Source: an uncultured Dorea sp. (GTDB lineage Bacteria; Bacillota; Clostridia; Lachnospirales; Lachnospiraceae). From it: 64,000 nt of DNA. Location of the stretch: assembly GCA_910585725.1 (NCBI GenBank), contig CAJUFA010000010.1, positions 21,450-85,449 on the forward strand. Reading direction: 5' to 3'. Below are positions 43,201-50,703 of the stretch, one piece after another; the stretch's first letter is position 1, and the number at the start of each line of letters is the position of its first letter. Position numbers and translations under genes: made by a program. Under the pieces are notes generated by a model, which saw only the letters and a program-made list of their open reading frames with translations, was not told the DNA's origin and made no database searches.

Positions 43201-43225
43201 TCATACTGTAAGACAGCAGTACAGC

Positions 43226-43337
43226 GAAATATAGGAAGCAAAATATAGGAAGCGAAATATAGGAAGCAAAATATAGGAAGCAGAATATAGAAAGCAGAAT
43301 ATAGAAAGCAGAATATAGAAAGCAGAATACAAAAAGC
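43226..43337 (+). repeat. 8 x 14-bp head-to-tail tandem repeat RRAATATAGRAAGC
   Basis: Units in order: GAAATATAGGAAGC, AAAATATAGGAAGC, GAAATATAGGAAGC, AAAATATAGGAAGC, then AGAATATAGAAAGC three times, then AGAATACAAAAAGC. The array ends 13 nt before the cupin ATG. Confidence 0.95.
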
Positions 43338-43350
43338 GGAGGAGAAAACC

Positions 43351-43695
43351 ATGACAAAAGCGGGAGAAAGAGAAGTAATAAAAGCAGAACACGTAGGCGG
43401 AGGAGCCGGATTCATTATGAAGGAAGCGCTGCTTAGTGTGCAGGAGCTGGGGGATCATTGCAGAATGTTCAGCAAAGTAACTATTCCGCCCAATTGCGAG
43501 CTTGGTCATCATGAGCATCATGGCGAGACGGAGACCTATTACATCCTGAGCGGGACAGGTATGTACGATGATAATGGTAAAGTCCTCCAGGCGGAAGCAG
43601 GAGACGTTTTCTTATGTAAAGACGGCGACGGTCACGGCATGAAGAATACCGGAACAGAGGATCTGACTTTCATAGCTTTGATTTTGAAGAAGTAG
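43351..43695 (+). CDS. cupin-domain protein
   Basis: 114 aa with cupin motifs GHHEHHGETETYYILSG and GDGHGMKNTG. GGAGGAG SD. Confidence 0.8.
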   Translation: MTKAGEREVIKAEHVGGGAGFIMKEALLSVQELGDHCRMFSKVTIPPNCELGHHEHHGETETYYILSGTGMYDDNGKVLQAEAGDVFLCKDGDGHGMKNTGTEDLTFIALILKK

Positions 43696-43741: not shown

Positions 43742-43771
43742 TTGCCATTCATAATCAAACAATGGTATAAT
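43742..43771 (+). promoter_or_regulatory. sigma-A promoter with extended -10 in front of the large unknown-function gene
   Basis: TTGCCA (43742-47), an 18-nt spacer, then TGgTATAAT (43763-71). Confidence 0.55.
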
Positions 43772-43777
43772 CAGAAG

Positions 43778-46700
43778 ATGAATGCCAGGCAAGGTATGTC
43801 TGTGAATAAGCAACGAAAGAAGCAGGTGTCAGACTTGAAAAATAAAATCCAGAAATTTTCCAAAGGAGATTTTCAGTTATCACAACCTGATGTCATATTT
43901 GATGAGACCAATCTGGTACTCATTATCGGAGAAGGGGAAGTATATCGGGGGAATTTTACAATTAAGGCAGAAGGCGGAAGGAAGGTACGAGGGCTGGTCT
44001 ACTCGTCTTCTTTTCGTGTGCATTTCAGGAATTCAGGGTTTGACGGAAATCCGGCAAAAGTAGAATTCACATATGACGGGAAAGGACTCAGACCGGGGCA
44101 TGTGGAAGACGGTATCTTCACGGTGGTGTGCAACGGAGGGGAATATGAGTTATCAGTTACCGCGATTATCGAGAAACCGTATGTTATGACTTCTTATGGT
44201 AAGGTGCAGAGTACGGATGATTTCCGTAAGCTGGCGATCAAGGATTTTTCGGAAGCAGGGAGGCTGTTCCGTTCCAGAGAGTTCTATGAGATTCTGAAGT
44301 ATGAGAACGAGCGTATCTTTTATCTGTATGATAATATGAGGAAATGGTTCCTGGGAGATCAGGCTCTGGAAGAATTTCTGGTGGGGATCAAGCAGAAGGA
44401 GTGTCTCTTCCTGACGCTTCCCGGAGAAGGAATGCTCTTTGAAGATCTGGCAGAATCGACGAAGGGGACGCTTACGATCGTGAAGAATACATGGGGATTC
44501 ATGCCGATTCATATAGAACCGGAAGGGAAGTTTTTAAAGGTTCAGCGTTCGGAGATCAGCACGGAGGATTTCATCGGGAATGCTTATGAGATCGAATATG
44601 TGGTACGGCCGGAGTTTCTTCATGGGGGACGTAACTTTGGCGCGCTCAGATTCATTACGCCCTACGAGACTCTGACGTATGAGATTGAAGTGCTGCAGAA
44701 CCAGAAGGAATACAGCGAGAACCGCAGGATGCCGGAACTCCTGGTCGCACAGATCCTGAAGGAATATATCGGATATGTGGCGGGAAGGATCGAACTGGAT
44801 AACTGGATGGAAAGCGCGGTTGAGAAGATGATATCCCTTCGGAAGCTGAATCCGCAGAGCGAGATGTATCAGTTGATGCAGGCGCACGTATATCTGGTGG
44901 GGAACAGAACGGAAGAGGCGAAATGGATCCTTGAGAATTACAATTATAACCGGTTTGCGATCGGAAAGGATCCGATGACAAACTGTTATTATCTATATCT
45001 GACGGCGTTGGTGCGGGGGAAGAAGAACCATTCGGAACGTGTGTTGGACGAAGTCGGGAAGACTTATATGAGACATCAGGATTCCTGGCTGTTATTATCC
45101 ATGCTTCTGGATCTGGATTCAAGATATAAGACGCCGTATAAAAGGATTGAATTACTGGAACAGCAGTATCAGTACGAGATGCACGGCGTGCTGTTTTACT
45201 TGGAGGCATACCAGTGTTACCAGGAGAGACCGACGCTTTTAAAAAAGTTAGGACGCTTCGAGATCCAGGTGCTGAATTTTGCGTCAAAATATCGTTTGAT
45301 GACCAAAGAACTGGCTCTGTATGTGGCGAATTTTGCCAGTCAGCAGAAACAGTACAGCGATTCTATGTTCCGGATTCTGGACCGTATTTATAAAATATAT
45401 GACGAACCTATGATATTAAATACGATCTGTACTTTGTTGATTCGGGGAAATAAAGTACAGAAACGATATTTTGTATGGTATCAGCGTGCGGTGGAGGCAG
45501 AGCTTAAGATTGCGCAGCTCTATGAATATTATATGATGACGGTGGATGAAGAAAGTGTAAAGGGACCGCTTCCAAAAGTGATCCTGCTTTATTTCATGCA
45601 TGGAAATTCGCTTAATTATAAGAAGGCGGCGTTATTATATGCGAATCTGGCAATCTATGAGGAGCAGGCGGGAGATCTCTATCTGAATTACCGCGAACAG
45701 ATGGTAGCGTTTACATGGGATCAATTGATGAAGAGGCATATCACGGAATCATTACGTGTTTTGTACAAGCGTTTCTGTAAACCGGAGGAGATGTCGGCGG
45801 ATCGTATGGAGGCCATGCGTGATATCTGCTATTCTTATATGGTCTCAACCAAGGCCGTGAATATGAAGTGTGTTCTGGTGATCGAGAAAGACGGGGAGAT
45901 CCGGCAGAGGGTTCCTTATGACGGAGAAGAAGGGACAGTAATACGGTTATATGATAAAGAGTCCAGAGTCGTATGGGAATCTGTAGAGGGAAGACATTAT
46001 ACAGATTCTATAGTGTACGAGACCCGGCGTCTTTTCTATGAGCCGCGTTTTGTGGAACTATGCCGTAAGTATGCCGCGACAACCGGCGTATGGGAGCAGG
46101 AGAATGAAAAAGAAAAGCCGACGTTCGATGGGGTGAAAGAAAAAGGGATTAACGCATTCGACGAGAAGGATGTATTTCGGCTGTGCAGCAGGAAGATTCG
46201 GGACGATAACTACGAGGAAGATGAATTCCTTAGTTATCTGAGTTTCGAACTGTTCAAGAGGCAGCAATTTGACAAGGTAACCCTGATGTATCTTGCAAAT
46301 TATTATTGCGGTCCTACAAAGAATATGAAGATGCTTTGGAAGGTTTTGAAGGAAAATGAGATTCCTGCCTACAAGATCAGCGAACGCATTATTACACAGA
46401 TGCTGTTCTCGGAGAATCTGCTCCAGGAAGAGTGTATTTTTGAGGACTACTATCGGTCGGATAATGTCTATTTCCGTCTGAAACAGGCATATCTTGCGTA
46501 CGTTTCCAGAGAATACGTGGTATGCGCAAGGGATCTGGAATCAGTTGTATTTGATATTGTTGCGAGCGAATGTGACGAGAAGGAAGACCTGCCGGATATC
46601 TGTAAGATCGCGCTTCTTAAATATTATTCGGATCATGATTATACGGCGGCGCTTGAGGTGGTGCTTCATCAGGTATTAAGAGAGATGTGCGAGAAGCAGA

Positions 46701-47131
46701 TTGTGTTCCCCTACTATCTGAAATATAAGGAAGAGTGGTTAAGGGAACTGCAGCTCTATGATAAAGTCATGGTTTCGTACCAGGCAAGACCGGGAAGCAG
46801 AGTGACGCTGTATTATAAGATGAAACACGGAATTCGCGATGAATTGGGGTATCAGAACGAGGTTATGATGCCTGTATATGAGAATCTATATGTAAGACAG
46901 TTTGTGCTGTATAATGATGAGTCTATCAATTATTATTTCATTGAGACCAGGGGAAAAGAGGATATTATAACGGAGAAAGAGATCCTGAAGAACGAAAGAG
47001 AAGTGACGGAGTCGGGCAAATACGGACGCCTGAACCGTATGGCGGATATGGCGACTATTTCACGTAAGAAAGCGATGATGGAATATAAAGAAGAGGAGAT
47101 TATGGCGAAAAGACTTTTTAAGGTCTATTAG
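43778..47131 (+). CDS. very large (~1118 aa) hypothetical protein: N-terminal beta-sandwich-like domains + long helical-repeat body
   Basis: Long uninterrupted ORF with host-like composition. The start is ambiguous. ATG 43778 lies ~7 nt after the -10 box and would be leaderless; ATG 43796 has only a weak SD; the TTG at 43742 overlaps the promoter and is rejected. Confidence 0.75.
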   Translation: MNARQGMSVNKQRKKQVSDLKNKIQKFSKGDFQLSQPDVIFDETNLVLIIGEGEVYRGNFTIKAEGGRKVRGLVYSSSFRVHFRNSGFDGNPAKVEFTYDGKGLRPGHVEDGIFTVVCNGGEYELSVTAIIEKPYVMTSYGKVQSTDDFRKLAIKDFSEAGRLFRSREFYEILKYENERIFYLYDNMRKWFLGDQALEEFLVGIKQKECLFLTLPGEGMLFEDLAESTKGTLTIVKNTWGFMPIHIEPEGKFLKVQRSEISTEDFIGNAYEIEYVVRPEFLHGGRNFGALRFITPYETLTYEIEVLQNQKEYSENRRMPELLVAQILKEYIGYVAGRIELDNWMESAVEKMISLRKLNPQSEMYQLMQAHVYLVGNRTEEAKWILENYNYNRFAIGKDPMTNCYYLYLTALVRGKKNHSERVLDEVGKTYMRHQDSWLLLSMLLDLDSRYKTPYKRIELLEQQYQYEMHGVLFYLEAYQCYQERPTLLKKLGRFEIQVLNFASKYRLMTKELALYVANFASQQKQYSDSMFRILDRIYKIYDEPMILNTICTLLIRGNKVQKRYFVWYQRAVEAELKIAQLYEYYMMTVDEESVKGPLPKVILLYFMHGNSLNYKKAALLYANLAIYEEQAGDLYLNYREQMVAFTWDQLMKRHITESLRVLYKRFCKPEEMSADRMEAMRDICYSYMVSTKAVNMKCVLVIEKDGEIRQRVPYDGEEGTVIRLYDKESRVVWESVEGRHYTDSIVYETRRLFYEPRFVELCRKYAATTGVWEQENEKEKPTFDGVKEKGINAFDEKDVFRLCSRKIRDDNYEEDEFLSYLSFELFKRQQFDKVTLMYLANYYCGPTKNMKMLWKVLKENEIPAYKISERIITQMLFSENLLQEECIFEDYYRSDNVYFRLKQAYLAYVSREYVVCARDLESVVFDIVASECDEKEDLPDICKIALLKYYSDHDYTAALEVVLHQVLREMCEKQIVFPYYLKYKEEWLRELQLYDKVMVSYQARPGSRVTLYYKMKHGIRDELGYQNEVMMPVYENLYVRQFVLYNDESINYYFIETRGKEDIITEKEILKNEREVTESGKYGRLNRMADMATISRKKAMMEYKEEEIMAKRLFKVY

Positions 47132-47151
47132 TATGAGAGGAGGGGAGGATA

Positions 47152-48435
47152 ATGAAGAAAGACGTAATTCTGGGTTATGATCTGAATGAGAAGTATTGTC
47201 AGATCAGTTTCTACGACGAGACGAAGGAAGAACCAGAGACGATGGAGACAGAGACAGATAATTATCAGATTCCCCTGATGCTGGGTTATTATAAAGAAAA
47301 ATGGGTTTACGGAAAAGAGGCAAAGAGGCTGGCCGCTCTTCAGGAAGGTATCACTGTGACGGATATTTTTGAAAAGGCTGTCCGGCAGGAGAAGGTAAAA
47401 GTCGGCGCAAGAAAACGTGACGGGGTCTGGCTGCTGGCCAAATTTATTAAATTGACGCTTGAGGAGTTTGAGGAGATAAGCTTTATTACGTTTTCCGTAC
47501 CTTATACGAATATTGATATGTCTAAGATGTTAAAAGGGATTGGCCATTATCTTGGAATACCGAAGGAGCGGGTCTGTGTCCAGGACTATAAAGAAAGCTT
47601 CTGTCAGTATATGTTCTATCAACCAAAGGAATTGTGGCAATATGAATCCGCGCTGTTTTATTGCGACGCCCAGGAGATCCGGGCTTATATGCTGAGAAGA
47701 CTGAATACGATCGGCGTGAAGGAGCGGGAATTATTCGTGACGGTGGAAGAGGTTGCAAACGCGCAGATGAGAGAATTGGCGGCGATCTATCCGATCTTGA
47801 ATAAGGATCAGGAGCAGGATGCGGACGACAGGTTCAAGACTTTTATACAGAGTGTCTTCGAGAAAAAGGTGGTTTCTTCGGTGTATCTGACCGGAGAAGG
47901 ATTTGAAAATAACTGGTATCCCAATTCATTAAAAGTGCTGTGTAACGGAAGACGGGCGTTTATCGGCAATAACCTGTACAGCAAAGGCGCGTGCTATACT
48001 TCTATAGGAAAATGTAAGGAATATCATGACAGCCCTGTTTATCTGGACGAAACGAAGATGACGGAGCAGATCTGTCTGCGTATGCGGGTCAACGGACAGG
48101 AAGGTTGGTATCCGATCGTATCATGGGGAACCCATTGGTATGAGGCGGACGGACAGTGGGAAGTTATCCTTGAGGATACTTCGGATATAGAGGTTCATGT
48201 AGAGACGCTGGCGGGAGAGGAACTCCAGGTGGAGAAGGTGTCTCTTGAAGGGCTTCCGGACAGGAGAGACTATTCCCTGCGGGTACAGATTGAAGTTCTG
48301 TTCGTGGATGAGAAAACCTGCAGGCTTTCGTTCAGGGACGTGGGATTCGGTGAGTTCTTCCCGGCGACAGGATTTCATGTGGAGAAGATAATTCATTTAG
48401 GAGGAAGCAATGGGCAGTTTAATTCTATGTCATAG
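47152..48435 (+). CDS. divergent Hsp70/actin-fold protein (NBD + beta-sandwich SBD, no helical lid) with degenerate nucleotide-binding loops
   Basis: Collinear by eye with DnaK: [62 protein letters not shown], and C-terminal [25 protein letters not shown]. Strong SD GGAGGGGAGG. Confidence 0.7.
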   Translation: [427 protein letters not shown]

Positions 48436-49192
48436 AAAAAGAGCAAGACAGCCTTATGTGATAGCCAGAATCCATATGCGAGTCTATACGATAGAAGAAT
48501 TGTGTTATTATATATGCAATAATCTCTATCTGATTGATTACACTCTGGTGAACAGGCAGTTATGCAACTGGATCGACAAAGAGTTGGAATTGTCGGAACT
48601 TGCGGAGCAGCTCAGGGAAGAACTGCGGCAGAATTGTACGATGGAACAGTTTGTACTGACGATATTGAGAGAATCCACAATCTACGCTTCGGGTGATATC
48701 AATAAGATACAGGGGATCCTGGAGCACCTGCAGAATCTGCGGGATGTGGAGCGCATGAAGTACAAGGCGGACAGTCTGCAGAGAAGCGGGGAATATGAGA
48801 CGGCGATATTGGTCTATCAGTCTATTATTAACAGTGAGTGGGACAATTCGGTGAGTAAGTTGTTCTATGGAAGAGTCTACGCGAGCCTGGGGGCGGCGTA
48901 CGGACAGCGATTTCTCTATGAAGAGGCGGCAAGGGTATATCTGGAGGCGTATCGTATCTGCGGAGATATGGAACTTCTGAGGACGTATCTGTATTGCTGT
49001 TACCGCGCGCTGCCGGAGGATCAGTATGTAAAGATGCTGTCGGGTAATTCGACGTTCCTGAATATGGATTCGGCCATGAAGGAGGATATCCGGGAGATTC
49101 AGAGGGGCATTGACGTGGACATACCGGAGGAGCAGTTTGAACAATGGAAGAAGGAATACCGTAAGATCAATAAGAGCCGTATTGCGGGGTAA
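48410..49192 (+). CDS. TPR-like helical hypothetical protein
   Basis: 260 aa. GGAGGA SD, and a 26-nt overlap with the upstream gene. Helix pairs resemble TPR (GEYETAILVYQSII and SLGAAYGQRFLYEEAARVYLEAYRI). Confidence 0.65.
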   Translation: MGSLILCHRKRARQPYVIARIHMRVYTIEELCYYICNNLYLIDYTLVNRQLCNWIDKELELSELAEQLREELRQNCTMEQFVLTILRESTIYASGDINKIQGILEHLQNLRDVERMKYKADSLQRSGEYETAILVYQSIINSEWDNSVSKLFYGRVYASLGAAYGQRFLYEEAARVYLEAYRICGDMELLRTYLYCCYRALPEDQYVKMLSGNSTFLNMDSAMKEDIREIQRGIDVDIPEEQFEQWKKEYRKINKSRIAG

Positions 49193-49269: not shown

Positions 49270-50703
49270 ATGAGTTACGATAAGTATAACAGTCCGCTTT
49301 CGGAGCGGTACGCGAGCAAGGAGATGCAGTATGTATTTTCACCGGATAAGAAATTCAAGACCTGGAGAAAGTTATGGATTGCCCTCGCGGAGACAGAGAA
49401 AGAGTTAGGGCTTGGGATTACGGACGAGCAGATCGAAGAATTAAAAGCACATGCAGAGGATATTAACTACGAAACGGCGAAAGAGAGAGAGAAGATCGTA
49501 CGCCATGACGTGATGTCCCATGTGTACGCGTATGGGGAGCAGTGTCCCAAGGCCAAGGGAATTATCCATCTAGGAGCAACTTCCTGCTATGTGGGAGATA
49601 ATACGGATATGATCATCATGTCCGAGGCTCTTGAGATTGTAAGAAAGAAACTGGTGAATGTAATCTCTGAGCTTGCGAAATTTGCCGATGAATATAAGGA
49701 ACTTCCGACTCTTGCCTTTACGCACTTTCAACCGGCGCAGCCGACGACCGTGGGGAAGAGGGCGACTCTCTGGATGCAGGAATTCGCTATGGATCTGGAG
49801 GATCTGGAGTATGTGAAGGGAACTCTTAAACTTCTTGGCTCGAAGGGGACGACAGGAACCCAGGCAAGTTTCCTGGAACTTTTTGAAGGAGATCAGGAGA
49901 CGATTGATAAGATTGATCCGATGATCGCCAGGAAGATGGGATTTGAGACTTGCTATCCGGTATCCGGACAGACATATTCACGGAAAGTGGACGCCAGGGT
50001 CTTGAATGTATTGGCGGGAATTGCGGCAAGCGCCCATAAGTTCTCCAACGACATCCGTCTGCTCCAGCATCTGAAGGAGGTAGAGGAGCCGTTTGAGAAG
50101 ACCCAGATCGGTTCTTCCGCTATGGCGTATAAGAGAAATCCTATGAGAAGCGAGAGAATCGCGTCTCTTTCCAGATATGTAATGATCGACGCGCTGAATC
50201 CGGCGGTGACTTCAGCGACACAGTGGTTTGAGCGTACGCTTGATGATTCGGCGAACAAACGTTTAAGCGTGCCGGAGGGATTTCTTGCGGTTGACGGGAT
50301 TCTGGATCTGTGCCTGAATGTTGTGGACGGACTTGTAGTGTATCCGAAGGTGATTGAGAAGCGATTGATGTCAGAGCTTCCGTTCATGGCGACGGAGAAT
50401 ATCATGATGGATGCGGTAAAGGCCGGCGGAGACCGTCAGGAGCTTCATGAGAGGATTCGTGAGTTGTCTATGGAAGCGGGAAGGAATGTAAAGGAGAAAG
50501 GATTGGATAATAATCTCCTTGAGCTTATCGCCGCCGACCCGGCGTTCAATCTGACGCTGGACGAGCTAAAACAAACTATGGATCCGGCAAAATATACAGG
50601 ACGCGCGTCCATCCAGGTGGAGGCATATCTTAGAGATGTGATCCGTCCCCTTCTTGAAAAGAATGAAGACGTACTTGGGATGAAAGCGGAGATTCATGTG
50701 TAA
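49270..50703 (+). CDS. purB: adenylosuccinate lyase
   Basis: 477 aa with the fumarate-lyase signature GSSAMAYKRNP, and N-terminal SPLSERYASKEM typical of PurB. Confidence 0.9.
   Translation: MSYDKYNSPLSERYASKEMQYVFSPDKKFKTWRKLWIALAETEKELGLGITDEQIEELKAHAEDINYETAKEREKIVRHDVMSHVYAYGEQCPKAKGIIHLGATSCYVGDNTDMIIMSEALEIVRKKLVNVISELAKFADEYKELPTLAFTHFQPAQPTTVGKRATLWMQEFAMDLEDLEYVKGTLKLLGSKGTTGTQASFLELFEGDQETIDKIDPMIARKMGFETCYPVSGQTYSRKVDARVLNVLAGIAASAHKFSNDIRLLQHLKEVEEPFEKTQIGSSAMAYKRNPMRSERIASLSRYVMIDALNPAVTSATQWFERTLDDSANKRLSVPEGFLAVDGILDLCLNVVDGLVVYPKVIEKRLMSELPFMATENIMMDAVKAGGDRQELHERIRELSMEAGRNVKEKGLDNNLLELIAADPAFNLTLDELKQTMDPAKYTGRASIQVEAYLRDVIRPLLEKNEDVLGMKAEIHV

Follow-up and report, generated by a model that had tools for sequence, protein, structure and literature searches.

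What becomes of an Hsp70 whose phosphate-binding loops and helical lid are gone, and what could such a protein do in a bacterial cell? The question is raised by a gene in a 64,000-nucleotide (nt) stretch of DNA from an uncultured Dorea sp. (contig CAJUFA010000010.1, positions 21,450-85,449), here called the window, whose positions serve as coordinates throughout. The gene (gene 2; 47152-48435) is intact, running from an ATG start through 427 codons to a stop codon included in these coordinates. It encodes a 427-amino-acid (aa) DUF5716 protein with an Hsp70 fold and no lid, and is flanked in its operon by the genes for a giant DUF5717 protein (gene 1) and a tetratricopeptide repeat (TPR) protein (gene 3). 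The features of this operon described below all lie on the plus strand. The gene 2 product is probably an Hsp70-derived, non-catalytic subunit of a cytoplasmic complex formed by the three operon proteins, with the TPR protein as its direct partner.

An Hsp70 fold in a DUF5716 protein

The gene 2 protein is a full-score member of the Pfam family DUF5716_C (PF18980; 355.2 bits, cutoff 34.7, E 2.9e-106). The Pfam model spans residues 112-416 only, which align to profile positions 2-296 of 296, and its library entry carries no statement on function or fold. No NCBIfam model matches the protein, and a single-sequence search of the PDB returned nothing relevant. The whole protein does not match Pfam HSP70 (PF00012) at the gathering threshold; its N-terminal 116 aa yield a match below threshold (11.4 versus 20.6 bits, E 0.091), in which residues 6-72 align to profile positions 1-65.

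A profile of the family connects the protein to DnaK. The 87 full-length homologues behind this profile are diverse, with identities to the gene 2 protein of 26-72% that mostly lie around 30%. When it is compared with 177,635 PDB sequences, the top six matches are DnaK chains (E 1.2e-5 to 6e-4), and no non-DnaK match falls below E 0.2. The alignment with DnaK includes a second, weaker collinear stretch at the end of the β-subdomain of the substrate-binding domain (SBDβ), where LegLperp...DlGFGe pairs with LTGIPPAPRG...KDKGTGK. Using hhalign against Escherichia coli DnaK, residues 4-183 align locally to DnaK 2-207 (E 2.3e-5), and residues 3-427 align collinearly to DnaK 1-516 in global mode (E 1.4e-4).

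The original prediction, made from the letters of the sequence, had proposed collinearity with DnaK by pairing a series of short peptides. All of the quoted peptides are present in the translation in the order and spacing given (residues 6-20, 52-61, 111-153, 170-177, 244-255, 272-281 and 376-401), and the collinearity is beyond chance in the profile search of the PDB, in hhalign and in AlphaFold2 modeling followed by Foldseek. The profile alignments reproduce the pairings at phosphate 1, the LVGQPAK segment, the ITVP segment, phosphate 2 and the end of SBDβ, and hhalign recovers that of GAC with GAA in connect 2. No sequence method recovers the match proposed between VYLTGEGF and the adenosine motif, since the global hhalign alignment is out of register at that point; what speaks for it is a strand in the predicted structure (residues 241-247).

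The AlphaFold2 model, calculated from the 87-sequence alignment, has a predicted local distance difference test (pLDDT) score of 93.1 and a predicted template modeling (pTM) score of 0.91, with low confidence at residues 417-427. Its top 50 Foldseek matches in the PDB are all Hsp70s (DnaK, Hsc70, BiP, Ssb and Ssz1; E 7e-19 to 1e-13), the best of them being lid-truncated forms of DnaK. These alignments exceed 500 columns and therefore cover both the nucleotide-binding domain (NBD) and SBDβ. A natural fusion protein, P0253, which is 28% identical to the gene 2 protein and was modeled independently (pLDDT 92.7, pTM 0.79), returns the same matches. Residues 1-290 (47152-48021) adopt the Hsp70-type NBD fold according to the profile, hhalign and AlphaFold2. 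They are followed by the hydrophobic segment PVYLD (residues 295-299; 48034-48048), which probably corresponds to the Hsp70 linker VLLLD, and by an SBDβ-like sandwich of eight strands (residues 300-416; 48049-48399) seen in the profile, AlphaFold2 and Foldseek comparisons. An actin-like NBD fold and an SBDβ sandwich are thus found in one chain, as the original prediction held, and its fold and remote homology place the gene 2 protein in the Hsp70 superfamily. By its motifs, its missing lid and its score against the hidden Markov model threshold, it lies outside the Hsp70 family proper.

One might ask whether the likeness to Hsp70 is superficial and the protein is instead a generic actin-fold (ASKHA) protein, for instance a ParM/MreB-like filament former or a kinase. 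Its N-terminal half does have an actin-like fold common to many families, and its Pfam HSP70 match stays below threshold. This explanation, to which we give very little credence, is largely refuted by the restriction of the top 50 structural matches to Hsp70s, SBDβ included, and by a PDB profile search that returns DnaK only, with a collinear stretch in SBDβ. Both models superpose best on DnaK in the SBD-docked 'stimulating state' (7kru/7krv), with a root-mean-square deviation of 7.7-10 Å and template modeling scores of 0.52 for the window model (query-normalized) and 0.47-0.48 for the fusion model (target-normalized). This superposition of predicted structures is a weak hint that the SBD may be permanently docked.

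Loss of the ATPase motifs across the family

Hsp70s carry a signature made of phosphate 1 (IDLGTT-S), phosphate 2 (DLGGGTFD), the adenosine motif (VGG-TR-P) and the catalytic residues Lys70 and Glu171 in DnaK numbering. Across the 87 homologues, the phosphate-1 strand keeps G8 in 86 sequences and an acidic residue at D10 in every one (Asp in 70, Glu in 17), and the three positions of the DnaK GTT turn are variable. With the register taken from hhalign, a variable column corresponds to DnaK K70, a column that is Gln in 52 of the 87 corresponds to E171, and the GGGTFD positions carry no glycines. The position of DnaK D194 is Asp or Glu in 57/87 homologues and Tyr in the gene 2 protein. A motif scan of 367 family members, each at least 380 aa long, found G-[ST]-[ST] after the phosphate-1 Asp in two proteins and the canonical phosphate-2 motif D.GG[GSA][ST] in none. 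Judged by these alignments, the family as a whole has lost the GTT and GGG loops together with the catalytic Lys and Glu. The ablated loops described in the original prediction are therefore no peculiarity of this copy, and homologues with canonical loops, which would mark gene 2 as a decaying copy, do not appear. The two exceptions at phosphate 1, P0148 (G-S-T, in GYDLGSTF) and P0205 (G-S-S, in GYEIGSSY), could be less degenerate or basal members of the family.

Other positions have remained under constraint. The glycines of the adenosine strand persist (G248 is invariant, G250 is present in 64/87), and connect 2 keeps G279-A280. Residues C264, R267, R268, F270 and N274 are strongly conserved around the IIA cleft. 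Residues 295-299 have the hydrophobic family consensus Y/F-V/L-Y/F-L-G at the place where the Hsp70 linker would fall. Near-invariant motifs comprise GxGFxxxW, G326-x-N-W329-Y-E, R377 and D396-x-G-F-G-E; the last three lie in the SBDβ-like sandwich, which carries the most conserved motifs of the family.

Whole structural elements also appear to be missing. The NBD-like part measures about 290 aa versus about 383 in DnaK, a difference of about 90. Between the phosphate-2 sheet and the adenosine strand (residues 206-240), the model contains only a length-variable, lower-confidence loop (206-222) and one helix (218-236). From this secondary structure and length, lobe IIB has apparently been lost. 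In Hsp70s this lobe contacts adenine and ribose and binds GrpE. The chain ends 26 residues past the last SBDβ motif, in line with the roughly 25 first estimated, and has no helical lid or C-terminal tail. The earlier statement that there is no lid holds for the gene 2 product, but an all-helical, non-homologous protein is encoded directly 3' of it.

Set beside the canonical DnaK, HscA and HscC, the gene 2 protein shares the two-domain fold, the order of secondary structure elements, the position of the linker, the phosphate-1 Gly and Asp, and the adenosine and connect-2 glycines. It differs from them in lacking the GTT turn, the GGG loop, the catalytic Lys and Glu, the SBDα lid and the C-terminal tail, in its shorter NBD, in scoring under the Pfam HSP70 threshold and in being encoded in an operon without dnaJ or grpE. 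It would be a diverged Hsp70 paralogue that retains the actin-like NBD fold, the hydrophobic linker and the eight-stranded SBDβ and has shed the parts of the ATPase cycle. Having lost the two phosphate loops, the lid, the catalytic Lys and Glu and probably lobe IIB, it should be unable to run the canonical Hsp70 cycle. The substitutions suggest that even ATP binding may be compromised in the gene 2 protein.

A different outcome of the same divergence would be a chaperone or ATPase that is still active through rewired chemistry, holding a nucleotide or some other phosphorylated ligand via D10, E148, R267/R268 and the D/E170 of most members, cycling on clients and using the TPR protein as a co-chaperone. 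The acidic residue at D10 in 87/87 homologues, the acidic phosphate-2 residue in 57/87, the conserved basic and aromatic residues of the IIA cleft and the retained hydrophobic linker would all fit such an enzyme. It is an unlikely one, given that neither glycine-rich phosphate loop survives across the family, that its members have likewise lost the catalytic Lys and Glu and apparently also lobe IIB, which binds adenine, that the gene 2 protein has Tyr at the phosphate-2 acidic position, and that the operon has no gene for a J-domain or GrpE-like protein.

Loss of all catalytic motifs from the gene 2 copy could also mark a dnaK copy in decay, an incipient pseudogene. This explanation is refuted. 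The ratio of nonsynonymous to synonymous substitution rates (dN/dS) is 0.02-0.035 between gene 2 and the four closest genomes (L001-L004), and such strong purifying selection shows that the gene is not decaying. Of 80 related species-level genomes, 79 have an uninterrupted open reading frame (ORF); hundreds of homologues, with identities down to 25%, show the same motif state, and the new motifs are strongly conserved. The single break (L034 4076-4597, from the metagenome-assembled genome (MAG) Dorea sp. CM_BacDor188.62) truncates the Hsp70-like gene after 173 aa with its flanking genes intact, and reflects either a fault of the assembly or a genuine interruption of the gene.

Among the representatives of 50%-identity clusters, 1,127 belong to the family at E ≤1e-3. 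Its diversity comes from this search of cluster representatives, the scan of genome contigs having yielded close relatives only (68-98% identity). Proteins identical to it or nearly so are encoded by genomes and MAGs of Dorea and other Lachnospiraceae, most of them originating from the gut of mice and humans. Isolates of Dorea, Extibacter and Sporofaciens are among the carriers of the operon. Three of the loci (L042, L046 and L047) come from GTDB records named Bacteroidaceae bacterium, Parabacteroides distasonis and Clostridium sp. CAG:343; they contain the same Lachnospiraceae-type three-gene arrangement at 73-74% identity with purB downstream, and are probably mis-binned or mislabelled contigs. 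Relatives are named 'DUF5716 family protein' in databases. One JGI record reads 'Molecular chaperone', and automated pipelines have therefore occasionally glimpsed the Hsp70 relationship.

Operon partners and the precedent of Ssz1

The order DUF5717 - DUF5716 - TPR is found in all 86 loci examined, 80 of them close and six distant, the Hsp70-like protein of the distant loci being 26-39% identical to the gene 2 protein. Gene 1 (43796-47131) encodes about 1,111 aa counted from the ATG at 43796 and matches Pfam DUF5717_N (PF18984; E 1.8e-206) and DUF5717 (PF18983; E 1.8e-94). No PDB relative of DUF5717 was detected by sequence or profile, and its segments match only their own DUF models in Pfam at E ≤1. 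Gene 3 (48410-49192) encodes the 260-aa TPR protein. It opens with a short β-strand segment, MGSLILC..P..Y..VYTIEELCYY, in which C6, P14, Y25, E28 and E29 are invariant; the family form of this segment, MGxLILC...P..Y...VYSIEELCYY, precedes an all-helical domain containing the TPRs. As a single sequence, gene 3 stays below the Pfam threshold (TPR_14, E 8.5e-4). Its family profile matches consensus and natural TPR proteins of the PDB at about positions 115-190 (E 2.5e-27 to 1e-5). No DnaJ or J-domain match in Pfam was obtained for DUF5717, the TPR protein or their segments, even at E ≤1. On visual inspection, the three operon proteins of the window show no evident signal peptide or transmembrane segment.

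Four of the distant loci contain a fourth operon gene after the TPR gene (L081 3093-3881, L082 2645-3019, L083 10081-11382 and L086 10123-11319). Its product measures 398-433 aa, belongs to no Pfam family and is predicted to form long coiled coils, with two transmembrane helices at its center. The 64-kb window has no homologue of it anywhere.

A more direct connection is provided by natural DUF5716-TPR fusions of about 703-731 aa, found in several lineages, in which the TPR part is C-terminal. The gene 3 protein aligns to fusion residues 434-627 (E 4e-31). In the AlphaFold2 model of the fusion, strand 8 of the β-domain is followed by a lower-confidence linker of about 17 residues, three short β-strands that correspond to the invariant N-terminal segment of the TPR protein, and 15 helices. 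In the fusions, the TPR protein thus holds the chain position of an Hsp70 lid. The idea that it is a lid split off from an Hsp70 was considered and set aside, as it has no homology to the DnaK lid (hhalign E 0.39). Because the C-terminal fusions link the TPR protein to the Hsp70-like protein, it is the best-supported partner, above the giant DUF5717 protein. The original prediction had suggested the giant neighbor as an example of a partner; the invariant gene order with DUF5717 stands, and the first rank among partners passes to the TPR protein.

The neighboring giant might alternatively be a client. The gene 2 protein would then be a dedicated holdase that grips a segment of DUF5717 during folding or assembly and then lets go. 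The invariant order with the DUF5717 gene directly 5', the retained SBDβ-like sandwich and the fast on and off rates with which lidless Hsp70 forms bind peptides (as cited in PMC7083937) would suit this function. If the ATPase is dead, however, there is no energy source for release, and the fusions suggest that the physical link is to the TPR protein rather than to DUF5717. The most conserved SBDβ residues (NWYEA and DxGFGE) also appear to map to loops and not obviously to the canonical peptide cleft. A holdase is therefore improbable.

The reading we favor is that the gene 2 protein is most likely not a cycling chaperone and would instead be a permanently assembled, non-catalytic subunit. Its constrained two-domain architecture, its invariant operon and its Rosetta-stone fusions argue for such a fixed structural role. 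The TPR protein would be the direct partner; its N-terminal strands, which come after strand 8 of the β-domain in the fusions, would probably complete or occupy the lidless β-sandwich, by analogy with Zuo1 and Ssz1. The TPR helices and the helical repeats of DUF5717 may offer binding surfaces. As a reading of the sequence, the original idea of a pseudo-chaperone permanently clamped onto a partner is plausible.

By analogy, the closest precedent appears to be Ssz1, from the ribosome-associated complex (RAC) of eukaryotes. Ssz1 binds ATP without hydrolyzing it, has no lid and depends on an obligate partner, Zuo1 (PMC7083937). The N-terminus of Zuo1 supplies β-strands that complete the SBDβ of Ssz1, together with a pseudo-substrate motif (PMC7083937). 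A lidless Hsp70 with a complete SBDβ, which defines the Ssz1/HSPA14 type (PMC7083937), is also what AlphaFold2 and Foldseek find for the gene 2 protein. Ssz1 structures (7x3k_B and 6sr6) are among the Foldseek matches. The position of the TPR β-strand segment right after SBDβ in the fusions fits the Ssz1/Zuo1 principle. The two systems differ in that Ssz1 binds ATP and has a full four-lobed NBD, in that its partner is a ribosomal J-domain protein, whereas the partner here is a TPR protein without a J domain, and in that Ssz1 is eukaryotic and the DUF5716 family is bacterial (Lachnospiraceae). No specific sequence tie to Ssz1 was found beyond the Hsp70 fold.

Other known systems share fewer features. 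Hsp110/Grp170 proteins such as Sse1 are likewise derived from Hsp70 and do not cycle as foldases, and their structures are found among the lower Foldseek matches of the fusion model (2qxl, 3d2e and 3c7n). Hsp110s still bind ATP; their SBD is enlarged and carries a lid, and they serve Hsp70 as nucleotide-exchange factors. The TPR co-chaperones Hop/Sti1, Tah1 and CHIP also pair a TPR protein with an Hsp70-type protein, and the gene 3 family profile has weak matches to Tah1 and Sti1 (E ~1e-3). They differ in binding the EEVD tail, which is absent from the gene 2 protein, and the likeness is generic to TPR repeats.

Several points weigh against a non-catalytic subunit in a three-protein complex. 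The link to DUF5717 comes from synteny alone, and the contact between the TPR N-terminus and the β-sandwich is a conjecture drawn from the analogy. The Mg-coordinating Asp of phosphate 1 is universal in the family and phosphate 2 is acidic in most members, gene 2 not among them, so that some residual ligand binding is possible. Unlike RAC, the operon has no J-domain protein detectable with Pfam, and no result points to the cellular process that is served.

A more far-reaching possibility, which we rate at somewhat less than an even chance, is that Lachnospiraceae, a dominant group among gut commensals, have a conserved cytoplasmic machine built around a catalytically dead, lidless Hsp70. It would consist of DUF5717, the pseudo-Hsp70 and a TPR adaptor, with a coiled-coil membrane anchor in some lineages, and would give the Ssz1/RAC principle its first counterpart in bacteria, with an Hsp70 fold frozen as a structural subunit and its β-sandwich permanently filled by the N-terminus of a partner. 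The non-canonical Hsp70s encountered in literature searches (Hsp110/Grp170, Ssz1/HSPA14 and HSPA12/13) are all eukaryotic. To our knowledge, bacterial Hsp70 biology consists essentially of DnaK, HscA and HscC, all active ATPases. If the proposal is true, the conversion of an Hsp70 into a scaffold also took place in bacteria, in a family that fills over 1,100 clusters at 50% identity. It would also give a structural handle on three linked families (DUF5716, DUF5717 and the TPR partner) found in nearly all members of one abundant group of gut bacteria of humans and mice, and the natural fusions are a ready-made construct for structural work. The DUF5716 Pfam family was already known; a bacterial lidless, catalytically degenerate Hsp70 derivative within a conserved three-protein system is new. 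Literature searches, including those for bacterial pseudo-, lidless or atypical Hsp70s, found no publication on the DUF5716/DUF5717 family.

Operon layout and genomic surroundings

A promoter-like site, TTGCCA-18 nt-TATAAT with a TG extension, lies directly 5' of the DUF5717 gene (43742-43771). It is sigma-70-like with 11/12 matches in a consensus scan, and is the probable promoter of the three-gene operon. The mechanical ORF of gene 1 opens at a TTG at 43742. Because the promoter match overlaps this TTG, the real start of DUF5717 should be the in-frame ATG at 43796 or a later codon. Gene 2 is preceded by a strong Shine-Dalgarno region, GAGAGGAGGGGAGG, just 5' of its ATG (47135-47148). The last 26 nt of gene 2 (48410-48435) are also the first of gene 3, an overlap whose length is shared by 79/80 close loci, and the Shine-Dalgarno sequence AGGAGG of gene 3 (48399-48404, within the codons for L-G-G) and its ATG both sit in the last nine codons of gene 2 (48399-48435). 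The tail of the gene 2 protein, HLGG(S/I)NGQFNS(M/L)S, is conserved, probably because the ribosome-binding site and start of gene 3 overlap there. The split between genes 2 and 3 is the exact fusion junction, which raised the idea of programmed frameshifting; this was set aside: gene 3 has its own strong Shine-Dalgarno sequence and ATG, and distant relatives show gaps of 17-101 nt or other overlaps.

The surrounding genes are ordinary chromosomal ones (RtcB, a histidine kinase, ABC/FtsX, a cupin, purB, AzlC, an extracytoplasmic function (ECF) sigma factor and molybdenum cofactor synthesis). PADLOC (anti-phage defense) and PHROGs (phage) gave no meaningful match for the three operon proteins, and with such a neighborhood the reading as a defense system or prophage was dropped. 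Purine genes recur 3' of the operon at variable distance: purB in the window (49270-50703) and in 76/80 close loci, purC, purF and purB in L084 (6359-10001) and purC in L085 (4364-5071). This recurrence may reflect synteny within the lineage and not a functional link. An intergenic 14-nt tandem repeat (AGCAAAATATAGGA; 43223-43329; 7.6 copies, 94% matches) sits just 5' of the small cupin gene (43351-43695).

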